Origin: a virus | Virus record (IMG/VR): IMGVR_UViG_3300037524_002067 | Span: 1-64,000 of that record | Direction: 5' to 3' (one strand) | DNA: 64,000 bases | In this document: in pieces, positions 1 through 53,393 of the stretch | How the letters are laid out: the number at the start of each line of letters is the position of its first letter | How positions within the stretch are numbered: the stretch's first letter is position 1 | The notes under the pieces: generated by a model | The model's database searches: none | What the model was told of the DNA's origin: nothing | The model's input: only the letters and a program-made list of their open reading frames with translations | Made by a program: the position numbers and the translations under genes

Positions 1-16
1 ATTCAATTTAATTTTG

Positions 17-112
17 TGGGGGAGTTTGGAATCGAACCAAGTGAGAAGTAACTTAAACAAGTGGCCTTCGAAGTGAAGAAGGAAATTTTGTAAGTAAAAA
101 CCCTTCTCCCCC
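17..112 (-). ncRNA. Y-RNA(Yrl)-like / tRNA-like RNA lacking a D arm
   Basis: Acceptor GGGGGAG/CTCCCCC-A, T arm TTGG-TTCGATT-CCAA, and internal GGCCACTTG...TTACTTCT motif shared with 219-350, 27017-27163 and 53557-53638. Confidence 0.55.
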
Positions 113-138
113 AATATTTTTATTTCAATGAACTTTTG

Positions 139-214
139 TGTGATCTATCGGAATCGAACCGATGTCAAGACCTGCCTCTTCAGGGCAGCGCTAAACCGTC
201 TCAGCTAAGATCAC
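139..214 (-). tRNA. tRNA-Phe(GAA)
   Basis: Cloverleaf; anticodon arm CTGCC-CTGAAGA-GGCAG. Confidence 0.85.
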
Positions 215-218
215 ATAG

Positions 219-350
219 TGGGGAAGGCATGGATTCGAACCAGCGACACAAAGTTTTTCAATAGAAGTATCTTAACAAGTGGCCTCCGTCAAGCGGATGT
301 AATTTTGCAAGTCATTACGACTTTTGCTCTACCAACTGAGCTACTTCCCC
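219..350 (-). ncRNA. tRNA-shaped Y-RNA-like RNA (anticodon arm replaced by a ~65 nt domain)
   Basis: Canonical acceptor, D (GCTC-AGTTGGTA-GAGC) and T arms; insert carries GGCCACTTG...ATACTTCT. Confidence 0.6.
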
Positions 351-357
351 AATTTTT

Positions 358-858
358 TTATTTCAATAAATTTCCATTATAGTTTTTAACTTCTTCTAAA
401 AAAATTTTTTCATCATGCTTTGAATGTTCTATACGATGACAATTAGAACACAACAACTCACATTTGTCAATTTCTTTTTTTATCACTATCCAACTTTTAT
501 TAGCAGCTGTTCCTATTCCAAACTCTTTATTATCATCTTTGTGATGAAATTCAAATGCTGCTACAGGACCTTTCCAATTACATCTATTACAAAATCCGCC
601 TTTATATTCTACTGCTGCAACTTTAGTTCTATATCTTCTAATTCTTGTATTACAAGAGTTACACCTTGAGCGATTTGCTTTGTTGTTTTCTATTTTGTTG
701 TTACAAATTTTACAATGAGTATAAATAAACTTTACACGATCTATAGAATATTTTTTAACCAACTTGCCAACAGTAGTTCTATGACATCCTACAATTTTAG
801 CAATTTCAGAATCATTTAAGCCCTCATTAATGTATTTTACCAACTCTTCTTTTTTCAT
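358..858 (-). CDS. HTH + HNH homing-type endonuclease
   Basis: N-terminal HTH (EIAKIVGCHRTTV); CxxC, EFHH and LCSNCH motifs. Confidence 0.85.
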   Translation of the reverse strand: MKKEELVKYINEGLNDSEIAKIVGCHRTTVGKLVKKYSIDRVKFIYTHCKICNNKIENNKANRSRCNSCNTRIRRYRTKVAAVEYKGGFCNRCNWKGPVAAFEFHHKDDNKEFGIGTAANKSWIVIKKEIDKCELLCSNCHRIEHSKHDEKIFLEEVKNYNGNLLK

Positions 859-945
859 AAGTTTTTATTAATAAATACTTATAAAAATTCTCTTTTGGTA
901 ACACATATAATGAGTTACTATAATTTTATCAAAGAACGTATCTTG

Positions 946-1018
946 TGGAAGGGGTCGGACTCGAACCGACATCACCAGATTTTCAGTCTGGCGCATTGAC
1001 CATCTTTGCTACCCCTCC
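946..1018 (-). tRNA. tRNA-Phe(GAA)
   Basis: Cloverleaf; CCAGA-CTGAAAA-TCTGG. Confidence 0.9.
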
Positions 1019-1143
1019 AAAATGCCTGAGATTCTCGCCCCAGGGCTTTATAACCGACTTCAGGCGTTCCTTCCTGATGATACCTGTAAATTCAGGTCTG
1101 CGATGCGCTCCTCTTTTCAATCGAGGGATGCGTTACGGGATTG

Positions 1144-1227
1144 TGTGACAGATCTGACTCGAACAGATGTCTCTGGTTTTTCAGACCAAGCGCTACAGGA
1201 TTTCTCCACCACCTCAGCTACTGCCAC
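1144..1227 (-). tRNA. tRNA-Phe(GAA) with expanded D loop
   Basis: Acceptor GTGGCAG/CTGTCAC, loop CTGAAAA, D loop about 10 nt longer than usual. Confidence 0.7.
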
Positions 1228-1351
1228 ATTTTAAAACATTGTGGGTTAGTTCTAACCTAACACGGACAATTGGGATCACCCACTCTGCCCTTTATGGATT
1301 CATCGTATTATCATTTGCATCCACAATGTTTTCAACAAAAAAAAAGAACAT

Positions 1352-1381
1352 AAAAAAACCCCGACTTTTTTGGTCGGGGTT
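1352..1381 (-). terminator. Attenuator terminator of tRNA array 1
   Basis: AACCCCGAC-CAAAAAA-GTCGGGGTT followed by a U tract. Confidence 0.85.
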
Positions 1382-1407
1382 CAAGTTTAAATTTCCTTAC
1401 AACGAAA

Positions 1408-1515
1408 TTAATTCATGACATACCCGACCTGGCTACTAAATAGCACAAACAACACTTGCACCAAAAAGAGTGCACGTAAGCTGCGAAGGTTAGATATGTT
1501 AGAATAATTTTTCAT
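1408..1515 (-). CDS. Attenuator leader peptide 1 (MKNYSNISNLRSLRALFLVQVLFVLFSSQVGYVMN)
   Basis: 35-aa ORF between promoter and terminator; GGTCGGGT in the ORF is complementary to the terminator 5' arm. Confidence 0.75.
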   Translation of the reverse strand: MKNYSNISNLRSLRALFLVQVLFVLFSSQVGYVMN

Positions 1516-1553
1516 TTGTTATAAATATACGTAAAAATTTGTTTTTCGATATT

Positions 1554-1582
1554 TTATACGTACAAAGGTAATATAAGTTTCA
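1554..1582 (-). promoter_or_regulatory. Composite promoter: TGAAAC-N16-CGTA with nested Bacteroidota -7 element TACCTTTG
   Basis: Same arrangement at 28950-28978 and 55032-55060. Confidence 0.7.
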
Positions 1583-2374
1583 GGTATTTGCAAGTTTATT
1601 TTTGAAATTTGACTTAAAGTGCTGAAAATCAATTTAAAAAATTTATTTAGTTTCCCAAAAATGATAGCATTTTAAGCAAGTGTACAAGGTGTAATATTCA
1701 CCATAGCTCATCAATTTACCTGGAACATGAGGTCCATTCACTCTTCTCATACGCTTTTCTATTCTCACATCCGATGATCCACATTTATGACAAGTTTTTT
1801 TATCTAACTCTTTTTCTTCTTGTTCAATCTTTCTAACTGCTTCACCCCAAGTGCAACGTTCCTTGAACATTACAAGCAATACCAATAATGTGTTCATATT
1901 TTACCCTCCTGTATTTCTTTTACAAAGTTTTCAAAATGCAAAATCAATGCTGGGTGATATCCATTTACAAGAAAAGGTGTTTGATTCACCTGATTCATTA
2001 TAACTGTTTTTGGATCAATATTCCAGATCTCATCCAATTTATGCACATTGTCTTTAAATTTCCCCTCAAGGTATATTTTAAAATCCTCACCTGCTTCAAT
2101 GAGTGTTTCATTAGATTCAGATCCTAAACTTGGATAATTAGCTCTGATAAAGTGTGGAAAATATTCTGTATTCATGTATTTTATTTTTTAAACTCTATTG
2201 TATCAACTTTCCACTCGACACATTCTTGTACAAAAAGTGGACCATAAAATTTATGAACCAATTCTTCTTTTACACAAACTTTTTTTGTCGTATAAAGTTT
2301 ATCATTAATTAAAAAAGTGTCTGGCTCAGACTTACAAGAACAAACAAATAGGACGATTATAAACAAAAACCTAT

Positions 2375-2674
2375 TCACTTTTTTCTATTATGTGTTTCGT
2401 TTCGATCATAAAAATCGCAAGGTTTTTTCTTAACCCACTCAATAAATTTTTGTATTTCTGGATGGACTTTTATTTTTTCTGGATCATTAAAATCTTTTTC
2501 AAGCTCTTTATTTGTCCAGATTGAATGCACTTTACGGTGGCAAATTTTGTGTAAAAACTCTGTTTCTTTTCCGCCACGAGATTTTGGAACCATATGATGC
2601 CTATCAATTGATGGGCCCTTCCACATATCTCTTTCACAAATTGGGCATTTATCTATAACAACTGGTTCACTCAT
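2375..2674 (-). CDS. Small HNH endonuclease
   Basis: CPIC, HHMVPKSRGG and HKICHRKVH motifs. Confidence 0.8.
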   Translation of the reverse strand: MSEPVVIDKCPICERDMWKGPSIDRHHMVPKSRGGKETEFLHKICHRKVHSIWTNKELEKDFNDPEKIKVHPEIQKFIEWVKKKPCDFYDRNETHNRKK

Positions 2675-3409
2675 AAGACTAAATTATTTATCAAACTTAA
2701 TTTTTAAGCCATGTGTTTCTTTAACCCTATCCAGTGGTGCCAATTTAAAAAACTTTGCAACATCAGCAGGATCTTCAAAAATCTCTGAAGTCCACCAAGT
2801 GTTTTTACCAAAAGAAATTTCATACACAGGTTCATTCTCTGTGTATCTCTTACCAGTCACAAGTCCAGCAACAATTCTGGCACCCCACATACCATTGTCG
2901 ATTATACCATATCGTGGTTGACCAATATGCTTATCTTCATTCATTTCTTTTTTAGTTTTTTACGCAATGAATCAATAGCTGGCTTCATATCTTTTATAAG
3001 CCAACGTTCAATATCTTTTGGGGAATAATTTTTATTACCCTCAAGCGATTCCCATGCCTCAATTAATTTTTTAACCTCTTTTCTCAATCGTAAATCTCTT
3101 TTGTCATTATGATTATAATATCTCCACGAACACTTAAACTTCGTCCGAATTGTTTTCCATCAAGCGCAACAGATACAGATTGACTCATTAAGTGTTGAAC
3201 CTGGAAGCCCTCTTTGATTTTTGCATCCATCCAGGTTTTTGCATAACTGGCTGTGTTGCATACAAAAGTTATTGTTTCAATCTTTTTGGTTTTTTGCTTT
3301 GCTGGAGTGCCAGACATAATGAGAACAACCAACAATACACTACCTATAAAAGCTACGGAATAAATAATTGCCTTTTTCATGATTCTATATGGATTATACG
3401 CAAAAAAAA

Positions 3410-4231
3410 TTAAATAGTTTCATATGGAACTGGTTCAATTCTTTTAATTGGTGCGTCATTTTGAAAATCGGTCTCAGCCAAAGCTTTTGTATCAATATAA
3501 GTGTCGTTGTTCAATTCATGACCTTTCATTTCTACATATCTGTATTTTCTTTTTTGGAGAAATTCTGGTACATTTTCGCCAAGCTCTATGTGTTCCAAAT
3601 AATACTTTCTGGTCATTGGCCCAGTGTGTTCATAAATGAAAGTGTGATCTACAGGGACCATACCGCCAACTTTTGGGGCTTTTCCATCATGAGCATCCAT
3701 TGTTGGAAAATAAATGAATCTACCACCACCAAATGGCTTGTATTCAAAAGCAATTGGTTGAGAAGATGAGGTTTCGTTTGTATCAAAAAAACAAACCGCA
3801 AAAGACCAACCAGCATATTTTTCTTGAAAAAAACTTTGTAATTCTTCTGAAATTTCAGGTCGTTTTTCCTCTGGAAATTCTGCTATGGCTTTTTTTACAT
3901 CATCAAAGTTTTTAGTTAAAACAATATCGTAAATTCCAAGTTTAAATCTTTCAACACTTAAACCTTTTGACAAAAACCCTCTTGATCTCATTCCGCACCA
4001 TTCATCCCACTCAGCTTTCTTGATAATGTCGTCAAGAAAATTTTTATAGTTTTCTGTGTTATGAAATAACGATTGTGTTGTTTCACCTGGAATCGGTAAA
4101 ATCATTGCATTTGGCTTTCCAGATTCATTTTTTACACTGTTGCTATAAGCAATAAAATGGTTTCCGTTCTCTAAAGGAAGAGATAGAATTTTTGTCTTTG
4201 ACAATGCGGCGGTGTTAACTGTGATGCACAT
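3410..4231 (-). CDS. Hypothetical protein
   Basis: 273-aa ORF in the co-oriented gene string; no function recognised. Confidence 0.6.
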   Translation of the reverse strand: MCITVNTAALSKTKILSLPLENGNHFIAYSNSVKNESGKPNAMILPIPGETTQSLFHNTENYKNFLDDIIKKAEWDEWCGMRSRGFLSKGLSVERFKLGIYDIVLTKNFDDVKKAIAEFPEEKRPEISEELQSFFQEKYAGWSFAVCFFDTNETSSSQPIAFEYKPFGGGRFIYFPTMDAHDGKAPKVGGMVPVDHTFIYEHTGPMTRKYYLEHIELGENVPEFLQKRKYRYVEMKGHELNNDTYIDTKALAETDFQNDAPIKRIEPVPYETI

Positions 4232-4718
4232 ATTTTTTTACTTTTTTTTACATATCAAAATCATCTATACAAGGACCCCCAGGCCACATCTGAGTGTGAA
4301 AAGGATCCACTTTACCACCTGGGTGGTTCCATTCGTCATACTTACACTTGCACATGCCATTGTGATAATTTTTACCATCACACATAGGGTTGTGCCCTGG
4401 TAAATATGGATAGCCATCATTTTCACTTCGCATATATGGCAATTCTTCTAATGATGGTCGTCCATATTCCTTTGCGTAATCACTAGGAAGTGGTCTACCA
4501 GTTAATTCCTCATACTGATCTAGTAATTTGTTTTCAATTAGAGCGGTAATAAATATTTTTTCATTTTCAGGTAATTGACATATCCAATTACGCACTTGGT
4601 TCGGATCATAATCCAATAAATCTTTACCATTTAATTTAATACCACATTTTAGTGGTGGTCCTTTATAAAGCATGACTTATTTTTTTTGATTAATATATTT
4701 TGGTAATTATATACTTAT

Positions 4719-4991: not shown

Positions 4992-7900
4992 TAATATAGC
5001 TAAATTTTACTCCATTATCAATAGTTCCAACTATTTTAAATCCATTATGGATTAATTTGTTTACTATTTCGTTTTCGTCACCAAGCTCAAATAAAGGCTC
5101 TGCAATATAAATCATTCCCTTACGATTTAAAACCCTATAAGCTTCTCTTATGTAGTCTTCATAATTTGGTCCCCACAAAGCCAAACTAAATACACATACA
5201 TCAACACTTTTATCTTCCACATATGAACTTATATCTCTCATATCACAAGCTATTACTGTTTCATCAGCTGCTACGTGGTCAAAAGATATAACCTTATTGT
5301 CTGGAACACATGATTTAAATTCATTCATCCCACAACCAAAATCAATAATAACATCATTTTTCTCAGTTATTTTTTCGGCAATTTTCTTATATGGAATTTC
5401 TTCCCAATCTTTTATTGATTCTTTACGTAATGAATGATAGTGATGCCAAGAGTCTGGATTATCAATGAATTTTTTATTCATATTTTTTGACAACATGGTC
5501 TTACCAAGTCTATTGAATTCACTTAATTCTGACTCTATTTTTTGCCTACGAACTTCCTCATCAGTAATATCTGGATATAATCTGGTTTCTAATTCTTCAC
5601 GCTCTACTGTTAAGAATTCATTTTCTTTTAAACGTTTTAGCCATTCATCGAGATTGCTATTAGCATCTTTTTCTAACTTTTCTCTCTTAGGCATTAGTTT
5701 TTCTGGAATAATACCGTCTACAGCAGCATTAGCTATTGTGGCCTTATACATAACTTTTTCATATCTATCTTCGTCCCAATTAAAAGACTTTTTATCGTTA
5801 GAAATAGAAACAAGCGGAATAATAACATCCATTTCCTTGAAATTGGAACCTTTACGATTTACACGTTTTTCTAATTGATATAATTCCGCATTAGTCCAAG
5901 GTAACGAAAGTATAATTTCCCTATCAGATACTTTTTGTAAACCATCAACACCAGTTCCTATTGGTCGTGACCCAAGAAATACATCATACTTACCAGCAAT
6001 AAAATCAGAAATTGCTGGTTCTCTACTAAATTTAGCCGTACCGCCAGTATATACACCAACTTTAAAACCTAAGTTAGTCAAAAACTTATATATTCTTTCT
6101 TCCATACCAGAAACATAGTGAGTATAAATAACTGTTCTACCAATAGAAGTATTTATATATGGAACAATGGCCTCAAGTTTTTTATCAAGAACAAGAAGTT
6201 CTTTTGATGTAACGTCATCTTTATCAACTAAAGAAGCTTCCCCAAATAACTCATCAGCATTAACATTAATTATTGTGTGTTTATTGTCTTTTAATATATT
6301 GTCTTCGACATTTTTATGACGAATACCATAAGTAACCAATCTTCTAAATAGCTCTATACAATTAGAAATAGTTGCTCTGGTATTTACGTCATCTAATTTT
6401 CTAAATGTAATAAGTTCCAATAAGGATTTTGCTTCAGTTAAATCATTTATGACAGGTGTAGCTGACATTGCCAGTAAATAATAATCTGGATTTAATTTTC
6501 TAACTTCACCTATTAAACCAAGAATAACTTCTCTACGCTTACTTTCATCTCCATCACCACGTTGTTTTATACTATGAACTTCATCCAAAATTATGTAATC
6601 AAATTTATTTCTTTCCAATAAAGAAATAGCATAATTTGCAGCACCTTTTTGTTGAAAAGTTTCATAATTAAGAATAAGATAATTATGGTCTTTATCTTTA
6701 AACTTAATATTCTTCTGAAGTTTTGTATATATTTGCGTATCTGGAAATGCTTCTTTTATTTCTTTAGTCCAACCTCTGGTGTCAGATGTTCCTATTGTGG
6801 AATTAAATGTAATTACTAACACATTCTTTGCACCGATATATCTTCCAGCTAAAACAGCACCAATTGTTTTACCAGCACCAGCACCAGACCAATTCCCATA
6901 TCTCTTATTGGCTTTTAGTTTATAAGATATTAATTTTTGCATTAATAGAGGCTTATGAGGATATTCCCACCCTTTTGGTAGAGCCATATTCATAACTTCA
7001 TTATGCTCGCTTAAGAAGCGGTCTTTAATTGTATTTGGTAATGATTTATTTAAAACTAAATTCTCTATTTTGGTAACATCTAATTTTTCAGCCAATGTAT
7101 CATACCAAAGATTATTAATAGAATCATTAATTAAAAATTGAATTCTTTCATCATCTAATGATGCTGTAATAACATCATTATCCAATTCTTTTAATTGCTT
7201 AATATGAATCTCAGTGCTATCACATACTTTCTCTTTTTCATTTTCTTCATTTAGTAGTTCCTTTTCTTCTGACTCTGTTAATTCGTTCTCAATATCAGTG
7301 TGTATATGTTCAATCTCATCATCTGTTTTAGCAGTTATTTCTTTGATAATTTCTGCTGTCACATTTTCTCTTTCTTCAGAACCAGGCTCTGATTCTTGAA
7401 GTTTCTTTAATTGTTGTTTATTGATAAAATTGTATAAACCATTACTTTCAATAATAGTTAAAAGAACTGGAACTGAACATACATGAATAAAATTCTTTGT
7501 TTGTTCTAAATAAGAAATAAGAGCATTCTTAGACCATAAATGATTTCCAGTACCCAATGTGCCAATAAAATCAGCCAAACACTGCCATCCGTTATTTTTA
7601 TAAACTCTTTCTGGAGATGATGGAATATTATCTGGTTTATTACCAGAATTACAATAGTCAATCCACTCTTTATGTGATTTTAAACCAAGTTTTTGTATAA
7701 AAGTTTTCGCCTCTTCAAATGGTAAAAATAACTGTTCTATTTTTAATTGGTCAGCAATTCTACCTGTACCTAACCAATCACCAGCAGATATATATTGACC
7801 TTTATATTGCACCTCTGGTGATGCTGGTATGTTAAAAGGTTTATTTCCACTATTACAATACACTAACCATTCTGCTAAACTTTTCAATTTAAGACTATGT

Positions 7901-11441: not shown

Positions 11442-12128
11442 TTATTGTAAGTCTTCAAATTGGCTTAAATCTATGTGTTGTTCATCTTCTCCAGCAACTT
11501 GTCTGTTTTGTATTTCACTATGTCTTTGAGTAGCATAAAACCAGTTTATAGATTTTGGTGGATTTAAAAAGTGATACAAAGCTAATGACATCATTTTTGC
11601 TGCTTCTTCAGCTGGCACCCTACCAGCATTTGTGCCAAGCCCAGGACAAACAACTGTATTTATTTTGCTTTGACCCATTGTGTTTGGCATCAAATACAAA
11701 TTATGTCTTTCTACAGCAATAAGCATAGCTTTCATAGCCATATAAACATAAGATGTTTTATTTATGTCCATTGGTATTCTCATTGTTGGGGTGTGAGCAA
11801 CATATTTATCTTTATGCCCAGGGTCTGCCATTTCATTTGCACGAACAATCATTGACGTGCCGATTGGTTGTTCACCCCAATATTCTTTAATAATTCTTTC
11901 TTGTACACGCTTCATCATTTGAATTCCGAAAAAGTCAGTGATACACTGATCCACACCGCCATCCATGAGCCCAAAAGAGTTGGCTGCGCTCACCACACAA
12001 TCTGATCGGTCCATAACCATTTCGAATGGCACATTTACAACTTCCACTTGAGGAAATTGTGCAAAGTGTTTTTTAAATGCCTCGAAAAGATCTGGTGTAA
12101 TTGCTGAGAGTATTAGTTTAAATGTCAT
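11442..12128 (-). CDS. Macro domain (ADP-ribose processing) protein
   Basis: VSAANSFGLMDGGVD, HTPTMR and PGLGTNAG motifs. Confidence 0.9.
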   Translation of the reverse strand: MTFKLILSAITPDLFEAFKKHFAQFPQVEVVNVPFEMVMDRSDCVVSAANSFGLMDGGVDQCITDFFGIQMMKRVQERIIKEYWGEQPIGTSMIVRANEMADPGHKDKYVAHTPTMRIPMDINKTSYVYMAMKAMLIAVERHNLYLMPNTMGQSKINTVVCPGLGTNAGRVPAEEAAKMMSLALYHFLNPPKSINWFYATQRHSEIQNRQVAGEDEQHIDLSQFEDLQ

Positions 12129-21147: not shown

Positions 21148-21209
21148 AACTATAAATAGTATGAAAAAAAGACGATAATAACAAACGAGCTAATTGTGTG
21201 TTAGTTTTG

Positions 21210-21296
21210 AGAACATAGTCAGATTCGAACTGACGAACAAATTACTTTGTATAACGGTTTTGCAGACCGCTGACTTAACCACTCATCCATATGTTC
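21210..21296 (-). tRNA. tRNA-Cys(GCA) with long variable arm
   Basis: GCGGT-CTGCAAA-ACCGT; variable stem ACAAA-GTAA-TTTGT. Confidence 0.85.
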
Positions 21297-23402: not shown

Positions 23403-23516
23403 CTAAGAACTCAAACATAACGGTGCGCATAAACACAAAAAGCCATACCCTAGATCTGTTTTCACAGAAATAGATGGACTCATTGACCACGCTGTTATAT
23501 TTTGATTTCTTTTCAT
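23403..23516 (-). CDS. Attenuator leader peptide 2 (MKRNQNITAWSMSPSISVKTDLGYGFLCLCAPLCLSS)
   Basis: TTG TGT TTA TGC GCA CCG TTA TGT TTG run; GTTTGAGTTCTT can pair with the terminator 5' arm. Confidence 0.8.
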   Translation of the reverse strand: MKRNQNITAWSMSPSISVKTDLGYGFLCLCAPLCLSS

Positions 23517-25482: not shown

Positions 25483-25488
25483 ATTTTG

Positions 25489-25572
25489 TAGTGACGGCGG
25501 GGATCGAACCCACGTTGACATTTCTGTCCCATCTTATCAGGATGGTGCCTCAAACCACTCGGCCACGTCACT
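25489..25572 (-). tRNA. tRNA-Ile(GAT) with long variable arm
   Basis: CCATC-CTGATAA-GATGG; variable stem GACA-GAAA-TGTC. Confidence 0.85.
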
Positions 25573-25726: not shown

Positions 25727-26044
25727 ATGTGGGGGAAGCTTTGACATAGTGCATATGATATTGTCATCACTTTTTTATATTCCGCCCCTTCGGGTTTATC
25801 TCACATTTGTGAAAGAACGATATTTCTTAAGTTTTCAAGACTAAAATCTTGAACATTTTTTGCAAAAAACATTCTGTAGCTTTCGTTTTGATTCAAAGGA
25901 AACACTGTTATTACAACACTCCCAAATCTGGTGTGTTGTAACCAAACTCTTCTGAATCTATCTGCAAAAGAAGCAGCCAACTCCTTTTGTCTTTCATTCA
26001 TATTTACACTGTTCAAACTTTCCATTTTATTCCTTTATTTTAAG

Positions 26045-26130
26045 TCCCCCTGGTTGGATTCAAACCAACGATGGATTTTTACATCTCCATGTTAAAAGCA
26101 TGGTGCTATCGGTCACTAAGCGACAGAGGG
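26045..26130 (-). tRNA. tRNA-Lys(TTT) with long variable arm
   Basis: CCATG-CTTTTAA-CATGG. Confidence 0.85.
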
Positions 26131-26481: not shown

Positions 26482-26491
26482 GTGTTTTTTG

Positions 26492-26576
26492 AGCCTATGG
26501 AGAGATTCAAACTCCCGATGGATTATTAGTCTCCTGCTTACAAGGCAGGTGCAATCGTTCACTATGCGACATAGGC
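26492..26576 (-). tRNA. tRNA-Thr(TGT) with long variable arm
   Basis: CCTGC-CTTGTAA-GCAGG. Confidence 0.85.
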
Positions 26577-28139: not shown

Positions 28140-28199
28140 AATATTAACTTTTTATATTAATAAATAGAAAGAAAATTCTAATTTTCAATGAACGTTTTG

Positions 28200-28286
28200 C
28201 GTACCCTCCTGGATTCGAACCAGGGATGGAGATTTCCTCACGGCAGATTAACAGTCTGCTGCCTTTAACCACTCAGCCAAAGATAC
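28200..28286 (-). tRNA. tRNA-Asn(GTT) with long variable arm
   Basis: GCAGA-CTGTTAA-TCTGC. Confidence 0.85.
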
Positions 28287-52063: not shown

Positions 52064-52135
52064 TGTTCGTTGTTTTTTTACTATTATAAATAATAACAAA
52101 AAAACTTCGGGCACAGGTTTTTAAAAAATAATTTG

Positions 52136-52221
52136 TGGAAATGACGGGACTCGAACCCGCATTAGAACTTTCGTCCGTCCTGATTGCAAATCAGGTGCCT
52201 AACCAATTAGACTACATCCCC
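52136..52221 (-). tRNA. tRNA-Ala(TGC) with long variable arm
   Basis: G3:U70; loop TTTGCAA. Confidence 0.85.
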
Positions 52222-53156: not shown

Positions 53157-53275
53157 AGTTGTAATTTTTGTCTAGGTTTTCTTCCTAACAATTGCTTTTA
53201 GAAGCTGACACATCCTCTGACGTGCCATCCCATGTACTTAGGGTAGCCTTTCAGCAACTTCTAAACTTTTTAATG

Positions 53276-53362
53276 CGGGACTGAAGGGAGTCGAACCCTC
53301 TACGAGATTTTCATCTGCACCACATAGACAGTGTGGCATACCAGCCGTTATACGCCAGCCCC
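53276..53362 (-). tRNA. tRNA-Asp(GTC) with long variable arm
   Basis: CCACA-CTGTCTA-TGTGG; G73. Confidence 0.85.
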
Positions 53363-53393
53363 AATTTGATTTTTATCTAGGTTTTCTCCTAGT

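Follow-up and report, generated by a model that had tools for sequence, protein, structure and literature searches.

The minus strand at the beginning of this virus sequence raises the question of why a short open reading frame (ORF) of 35 codons, with a transcription terminator close behind it, should stand directly ahead of a block of transfer RNA (tRNA) genes. The stretch analyzed here, referred to as the window, comprises 64,000 nucleotides (nt) and corresponds to bases 1-64000 of a linear 154,343-bp virus contig (IMG/VR record IMGVR_UViG_3300037524_002067) with a G+C content of 32% and no terminal overlap. It is proposed, with a probability of roughly 0.8, that window positions 1582..1349 (-) form a leader-peptide transcription attenuator which gates a Phe/Val/Leu/Arg tRNA array of a giant phage. 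Features that can be read directly from the sequence carry this proposal, namely the ORF itself, the terminator, an alternative pairing between the two, the match between leader codons and array tRNAs, and the conservation and covariation of this arrangement over paralogous cassettes and relatives.

The cassette opens with a conserved promoter/5' untranslated region (5'UTR) module at 1516..1597 (-), made up of AAACTTG, TGAAACTT-N7-CTTTGTACGTATAAA, GAAAAACAAATTTTT and then TATTTATAA, which adjoins the ATG. The leader ORF (1515..1408, -), referred to as leader 1, consists of 35 codons plus the stop and encodes MKNYSNISNLRSLRALFLVQVLFVLFSSQVGYVMN*. The codon listing of this ORF places a putative regulatory run at codons 10-26 (1438..1488, -), which reads CTT CGC AGC TTA CGT GCA CTC TTT TTG GTG CAA GTG TTG TTT GTG CTA TTT. 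The original prediction had drawn attention to three TTT and three GTG codons in this core, both of which are present in leader 1, as are the Leu, Gln and Arg codons which it had listed as enriched (CTT, CTC, CTA, TTG twice, CGC, CGT, CAA, and CAG); one TTA in the core has to be added to that list. Inside the run lies a small hairpin, UGCAC-UCUUUUU-GGUGCA, followed by a U-rich stretch (1474..1457, -), which was picked up as a terminator-like match and recurs in minimum free energy (MFE) folds. With its 6-bp stem and U-rich tail it is a candidate RNA-polymerase pause hairpin. Codons 29-32 (1422..1430, -) hold the predicted antiterminator strand AGGUCGGGU, a near copy of the terminator 3' arm. 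The intrinsic terminator itself, GAACCCCGAC-CAAAAAA-GUCGGGGUUU plus a U-tract, is located 25 nt past the leader stop at 1382..1349 (-), its hairpin (1382..1356) having a 10-bp stem with 6 G-C pairs in the scan and a folding energy of -15.8 kcal/mol.

An attenuator built from these parts would work as follows. The phage promoter would launch a transcript in which the 35-codon ORF comes first, and a ribosome on this ORF would meet codons 10-26, almost all of them readable by tRNAs encoded downstream. With fast decoding the ribosome would reach the stop codon and cover AGGUCGGGU, the terminator hairpin 25 nt further would form, and transcription would stop ahead of the tRNA genes. Were one of the listed tRNAs scarce or uncharged, the ribosome would stall within the codon run and leave AGGUCGGGU free to form an antiterminator with the 5' arm of the terminator, and the polymerase would enter the ~5-kb array. 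The outcome would be a negative feedback in which the tRNA block is made when, and only while, its codons are decoded slowly. Translation of the ORF, ribosome stalling and the transcriptional outcome are the parts of this scheme which we infer.

The array that would be gated in this manner begins with a tRNA-Phe(GAA) at 1227..1143 (-) which carries a ~12-nt insert in its D-loop. This gene was found by Infernal at 28.5 bits with the anticodon loop CUGAAAA, and was called Tyr by ARAGORN because of the D-loop insert. It is followed by a canonical tRNA-Phe(GAA) at 1018..945 (-, 71 bits), a 166-aa ORF at 858..358 (-) whose DNA is similar to an annotated HNH endonuclease gene and which is accordingly homing endonuclease-like, a tRNA-Phe(GAA)-like gene at 350..219 (-, 43 bits) with an insert of ~60 nt (a 64-nt insertion) 5' of the anticodon loop, a tRNA-Phe(GAA) at 214..138 (-) from the tRNA scan, and an aberrant tRNA-like gene at 112..14 (-) with an insert related to that of 350..219, where the array runs on past the contig edge. 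It had been stated that the first tRNAs downstream were three Phe(GAA); the first tRNAs are indeed of this type, and their number in the window is four.

As the first base of the contig is window position 1 and its ends do not overlap, the continuation of the array was sought in another assembly of the same phage. The product of the HNH-like ORF (858..358) served as an exact-match query against other public assemblies and identified L007, a 46-kb Joint Genome Institute (JGI) metagenome contig of the same phage, which extends 9.6 kb past the window edge and whose bases 1-4224 are 100% identical to window 4224..1. A further metagenome contig from the National Center for Biotechnology Information (NCBI), L006, was 99.98% identical. 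The array was found to continue over L007 4405-8070, with Val(UAC) at 4405 and 5222, Leu(AAG) at 5119, an odd Arg(UCG)-like gene at 6722, Arg(ACG) at 6814, Leu(CAA) at 7005, Leu(CAG) at 7092 and 7983, Leu(UAG) at 7535 and a weak, intron-bearing tRNA-like gene at 7625. No Ser and no Glu tRNAs were found in the leader-1 array including this continuation. Between this array and a separate Gln cassette lie 3.7 kb of small same-strand ORFs, and neither a further array-type promoter motif nor a convincing terminator was detected from the leader-1 terminator to L007:11792. The 10 kb past the Gln array held no more tRNAs and no Glu tRNA.

From the leader codons and the isotypes missing from the window it had been forecast that Leu, Val, Gln and possibly Arg or Ser tRNAs would be found in the same transcription unit left of position 1, an array of unrelated isotypes with no Leu, Val or Gln being the outcome that would count against the idea. 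The continuation in L007 holds Val, Leu, Arg and, later, Gln, and this adverse outcome did not come about. Leu, Val and Arg are therefore placed as forecast, the Gln tRNAs stand behind a leader of their own, and Ser is absent. The premise that these isotypes were missing was also sound, Val, Gln, most Leu and most Arg tRNAs being absent from the contig. The forecast was partly easy, in that Val, Gln, Glu, most Leu and most Arg are simply the isotypes lacking in the contig; its non-trivial parts are the direct continuation of the leader-1 array, the absence of Glu (missing from the contig and not listed in the leader) and the agreement at the level of codons.

This agreement is close. The tRNAs of the array read 13 of the 17 codons in the core, compared with 12.5% of codons in the 95 long ORFs of the contig (binomial 2.8e-9). 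To offset the choice of the core after the fact, 17-codon windows were scanned in all 943 ATG-initiated ORFs of at least 20 aa in the six frames of the contig, among which only leader 1 reached 13/17, the runner-up scoring 11. The match extends to synonymous codons. Arg in leader 1 is spelled CGC and CGT, which make up 3 and 10% of the Arg codons of the genome (AGA accounts for 69%) and fit Arg(ACG); Val is spelled GTG three times (15% of Val codons), fitting Val(UAC); and Leu is spelled CTT, CTC, CTA, and TTG twice, fitting Leu(AAG, UAG, CAG, and CAA). A second leader of the same phage, leader 5, uses AGA/AGG before Arg(UCU), whereas leader 1 uses CGC/CGT before Arg(ACG), a difference in spelling which amounts to isoacceptor-level specificity inside one genome.

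The second part of the proposal, the RNA switch, was assessed by folding. The complementarity of GGTCGGG (1429..1423) to CCCGACC of the terminator had been noted by inspection and was borne out, the antiterminator strand AGGUCGGGU pairing with the terminator 5' arm CCCCGACC at -15.3 kcal/mol, a value equaled by 1.4% of shuffled upstream sequences (p 0.014). The RNA as present before the terminator 3' arm is made was also folded with a ribosome-sized mask. With the ribosome at codons 10, 18 or 26, 7-8 of the 10 bases of the 5' arm were sequestered by partners within nt 88-99, and with the ribosome at the stop codon none of the 10 was sequestered and the arm was free. In these modeled folds a stall goes with the antiterminator and arrival at the stop with a blocked antiterminator, which is the geometry of a classical attenuator. 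In the full-length MFE structure nt 17-29 are paired with the antiterminator strand, a pairing that is not part of the pre-terminator fold.

By its layout the leader 1 cassette is one of at least six in this phage. Exactly four copies of the core promoter motif are present in the 154-kb contig (1582, 28978, 55060, and 77498) and one more in L007 (11625), each copy lying directly 5' of a tRNA block and being followed by a short ORF and a terminator; one more cassette, at 23516..23403, has a promoter of a different type. The leader MLMNNLHTTKTTTIKHNICINKT... (NNLHTTKTTTIKHNICINKT) precedes Asn, His, Thr, Lys, Ile, and Met tRNAs, (V)KTVTTYSATTPAAPMMGGAGYAPAYDYSYGSGY... (YSATTPAAPMMGGAGYAPAYDYSYGSGY) precedes Pro, Asp, Tyr, Ala, Gly, and Met, MKTVTNNRSWSWRRSSSSSR... 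(RSWSWRRSSSSSR) precedes five Ser, Arg(UCU) and two Trp, and ...GFLCLCAPLCLSS (FLCLCAPLCL) precedes Leu(UAA) and three Cys. Leader 6, MNVNVNTQQQQQQPSHEGCPSIVCK* (...QQQQQQ...), with its promoter motif at L007:11625 and its terminator at 11792-11824, heads three Gln(UUG) and one Gln(CUG). When the six leaders were set against the six arrays, the true pairing gave 88 amino-acid and 80 codon matches compared with permutation means of 37 and 31, and was the single best of the 720 permutations. In all six cassettes the 3' segment of the ORF just past the codon run pairs with the terminator 5' arm at -13.8 to -18.8 kcal/mol, with p ranging from 0/500 shuffles to 0.06.

Leaders of the same kind were identified in related phages. 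G001, a complete 518,809-bp IMG/VR phage with terminal repeats and 55 tRNA genes, encodes a homolog of the window ORF 4231..3410, near leader 1, with 56% amino acid identity. Its tRNA arrays differ in composition from those of the window phage, and each is headed by a matching leader, giving five pairs: MKNVNTYTVNTLRQLVLEQLIES... before Leu, Arg(UCU), Met, Glu, and Ile; ...QQQQQQQ... before four Gln; MRTNTSHNHFNKSTFSNKS... before Phe, Ser, Asn, His, and Thr; ...KKKKK... before five Lys; and ...TYTTKTSTTWPVMPTTVGAICIIMAGDY... before Gly, Met, Val, Trp, Tyr, Pro, Ile, Asp, Ala, Thr, and Arg. The true pairing was the unique best of 120 permutations. In the 642-kb genome of an uncultured phage (GenBank LR756502.1) seven leader-array pairs were found, examples being KHKHFSKLNKWF before Phe/His/Trp/Lys and QQQQQQQ before four Gln, and among 5040 permutations the true pairing stood alone at the top. 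A 10.5-kb contig (L011) has the leader SLSLSLLSLSL before three Leu and three Ser tRNAs.

The MKNVNTYTVNTLRQLVLEQLIES leader of G001 is the ortholog of leader 1, with which it has in common the N-terminus MKN.N...N.LR.L and the terminator AACCCCGrC/GUCGGGGUU. In step with the arrays, Glu and Ile replace Phe and Val in the ortholog, and AGA and TTA replace CGY and CTN; it uses AGA, TTA, GAA, and ATA and contains no Phe codons at all. The DNA alignment of the two leaders is unreliable outside the terminator, and their helices were therefore compared directly. The antiterminator helix is kept by two compensatory changes, being GGUCGGG:CCCGACC in the window and AGCUGGG:CCCGGCU in G001. The cognate helices have energies of -15.3 kcal/mol (window) and -13.1 kcal/mol (G001), and one of the two cross pairs has -5.9 kcal/mol.

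It can be asked whether the leader, even if it senses decoding, acts by a route other than termination, such as stall-dependent cleavage or processing of the RNA, transcript stability, or translational control of the ORFs in the array. Several arrays do hold protein ORFs between leader and tRNAs (a 77-aa ORF after leader 3, and in array 1 the HNH ORF along with small ORFs), leaders 3 and 4 do not conform to the static masking model, and a structured spacer lies behind the leader-1 terminator, all of which would suit such an output. However, a canonical G+C-rich hairpin and its U-tract are present within 20-40 nt downstream of all six leaders of this phage and of six more in the relatives, and a complement of the terminator 5' arm was found within the ORF in all six here and in most of those in the relatives (with a shuffle p of 0.28 for Gd). 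As the alternative helix also covaries between orthologs, an output of this type is considered unlikely.

Another account would treat the ORF product as a small hydrophobic membrane peptide of the usual phage kind, served by a terminator of its own, the array being expressed independently and the codon likeness arising as a by-product of a helix rich in Leu, Phe and Val. Small membrane peptides are common in phages, and LRALFLVQVLFVLFSSQVGYV is a stretch of ~21 mostly hydrophobic residues. Hydrophobicity, however, leaves unexplained a match which holds at the codon level with rare synonymous codons (CGC/CGT, GTG, CTC, and CTA), and the sister cassettes of like layout carry hydrophilic leaders (QQQQQQ, RSWSWRRSSSSSR, and NNLHTTKTTT), each matched to its array. 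The exchange of Phe and Val for Glu and Ile in the G001 ortholog, along with its array, is a further difficulty, and the classical leaders ilvL, leuL and pheL, which serve Leu, Val, Ile and Phe, look equally hydrophobic. There is accordingly very little room for this account. That the likeness between leaders and arrays is a product of chance or of the composition of an AT-rich genome is scarcely credible, for although AT-richness favors Asn, Lys and Ile in some sister leaders and the core was picked after viewing the sequence, the 943-ORF scan leaves leader 1 alone at 13/17 or above, the permutation tests put the true pairing first in three genomes, and the tRNA forecast for the region outside the window came true.

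Several points weigh against attenuation as the explanation. The support for it is sequence-derived and in silico throughout, and it presumes that the RNA polymerase transcribing the array obeys intrinsic terminators. The 5' module of leader 1 contains no Shine-Dalgarno sequence, and no clear anti-antiterminator (1:2) helix emerged from its folds. Of the 17 codons in the core, four (AGC, TTA, GCA, and CAA) fall outside the reading of the array, and the core, being hydrophobic, is equally readable as a membrane helix. For leaders 3 and 4, the static model with a ribosome at the stop codon leaves the antiterminator unmasked because that strand lies 17-28 nt ahead of the stop, and kinetic coupling would therefore be needed there. 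The treatment of the ~5-kb array as one transcription unit draws solely on the absence of detectable promoters and terminators.

Some further features of the leader 1 region can be described. The upstream neighbor is an 84-aa ORF (1897..1643, -), after which a 127-nt intergenic stretch holds the promoter/5'UTR module. Between the terminator and the first tRNA is a structured spacer of 113 nt (1228..1340, -) with a 12-bp closing stem, AACAUUGUGG / CCACAAUGUU, and internal hairpins, which folds at -31 kcal/mol with z = -2.76; possible roles are those of a processing signal and of a small RNA. The spacer at 1142..1019 folded no better than shuffled sequences, and Rfam gave no family for the leader or for either spacer. 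A strain variant (L009, bases 1-330 compared with window 1330-1650) is 98.2% identical overall and heavily diverged in the promoter flank, where the blocks TGAAACTT, CTTTGTA, CGTATAAA, GAAAAACAAATTTTT, and TATTTATAACAAATG are kept; its leader ORF differs from leader 1 by three changes only, N3T, one synonymous Ser change and TTG to TTA. A scan of IMG/VR with the promoter motif also returned five loci without tRNAs, which were set aside as unrelated or as having the promoter type alone in common. Comparison of the DNA of window 1-4300 with GenBank phages turned up no close relative, the matches being short (68-74%) and confined to an HNH-type ORF and one further ORF.

Other observations concern the Gln and Leu/Cys cassettes. 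In three genomes the array just upstream of the Gln array has a leader which holds Gln codons, the array itself being without a Gln tRNA; two such codons occur in window leader 1, two in G001 (L012 1828-1929), and five in LR756502.1 (L021 959-1066). Control may thus be nested, with transcripts that read through the upstream array arriving at the Gln attenuator. Directly past the four tRNA-Gln genes, and downstream of the Gln leader, is an ORF with a GatB/YqeY domain (L007 12972-13646), which could be a Gln-tRNA-related factor under the putative Gln attenuator. The Leu/Cys leader (23516..23403) terminates in TAG (window 23403-23405), and a suppressor-type tRNA with the anticodon CUA, labeled 'Pyl' by ARAGORN, is located at contig 81480-81552 (-). 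If the TAG were read through at some stage, a ribosome on the Leu/Cys leader would run across the terminator.

Among the tRNA genes of this phage, nearly every isotype is represented by a canonical tRNA of 72-77 nt paired with a copy of 84-92 nt which has a long variable arm (class II shape). Such copies were seen for Cys, Lys, Asn, Ala, Asp, Ile, Thr, and Trp, and also for Gln, Val, His, and Met, with examples at window 21209-21296, 26044-26130, 28199-28286, 52135-52221, 53275-53363, 25488-25572, and 26491-26576 and at contig 74684-74769. To our knowledge the class II shape is confined in bacteria to the Leu, Ser, Tyr, and Sec tRNAs, and the identity or charging of the phage copies is therefore in question. 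The ~60-nt inserts of the tRNA-like genes at 219-350 and 14-112 (-) have in common GGCCACTTGTT(T)AAG(A/T)TACTTCT and fall short of the length of group I introns. A 31-bp indel distinguishes L006 from L007 at these insert-bearing genes, at the same spot as the end of the window contig. An RtcB RNA-ligase gene is situated ~8 kb past the Gln array (L023 17764-19164).

It would seem, on balance, that the tRNA supply of giant phages follows demand, a given block being switched on only as long as ribosomes stall at the very codons which its tRNAs read, with a resolution that reaches single isoacceptors. A phage of this kind would find and mend holes in the tRNA pool of its host, whether caused by codon-usage mismatch, host shut-off or an anticodon-nuclease defense, without a protein sensor. 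This bears on the reason for the dozens of tRNA genes found in large phages and on how these are used, as phage tRNAs would then answer a shortage in a regulated and self-limiting way instead of being supplied constitutively. Textbook attenuation would also be extended from the supply of amino acids to the tRNA pool, with isoacceptor resolution. The rule linking leader and array is predictive, in that a stretch of 17 codons forecast tRNA genes past the end of the contig, and it can be put to use in annotating arrays, in spotting missing parts of assemblies and in designing tRNA-responsive switches.

In the full-text literature, mostly without subscription journals, no description of phage tRNA genes controlled by leader peptides was found. 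The targets of classical attenuators are genes for amino-acid biosynthesis or aminoacyl-tRNA synthetases, whereas here tRNA genes with interspersed HNH and small ORFs lie downstream. The closest layout is that of the ilvGMEDA (Ile/Leu/Val) and thr (Thr/Ile) leaders, which likewise have a short leader ORF mixing regulatory codons for several amino acids, an intrinsic terminator soon past the stop, an alternative helix engaging the terminator 5' arm and, where Leu, Val or Phe is sensed, a hydrophobic-looking peptide. Unlike these, the phage cassettes would regulate tRNA genes instead of biosynthetic enzymes, their codon choice tracks single isoacceptors (CGY against AGR, CTN/TTG against TTA), the sister leaders list up to ~10 isotypes, a Shine-Dalgarno sequence is absent, and the folds gave no clear 1:2 helix.

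T-box riboswitches also report the state of a specific tRNA, with specificity at the level of the anticodon, through a choice between terminator and antiterminator. A T-box, however, binds the tRNA directly by its specifier loop and T-box sequence and needs no translation, whereas the phage sensor would be an ORF; no match to the T-box family (RF00230) was found in the window at the gathering threshold, nor in positions 1-1700 at E values up to 1, and the other cis-regulatory families of Rfam gave no match either.

In the leaders of pheST (pheM) and pheA (pheL) and in hisL, runs of codons for one amino acid (Phe, or seven His) gate the downstream gene through ribosome stalling, and leader 6 of the phage, with QQQQQQ before four tRNA-Gln genes, has the design of hisL. 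Of these leaders pheM comes nearest in function, as it gates a gene of the translation apparatus, that for PheRS. The difference is that in the phage the product would be the tRNA itself, and the loop would close on decoding capacity rather than on the supply of an amino acid or on a charging enzyme.

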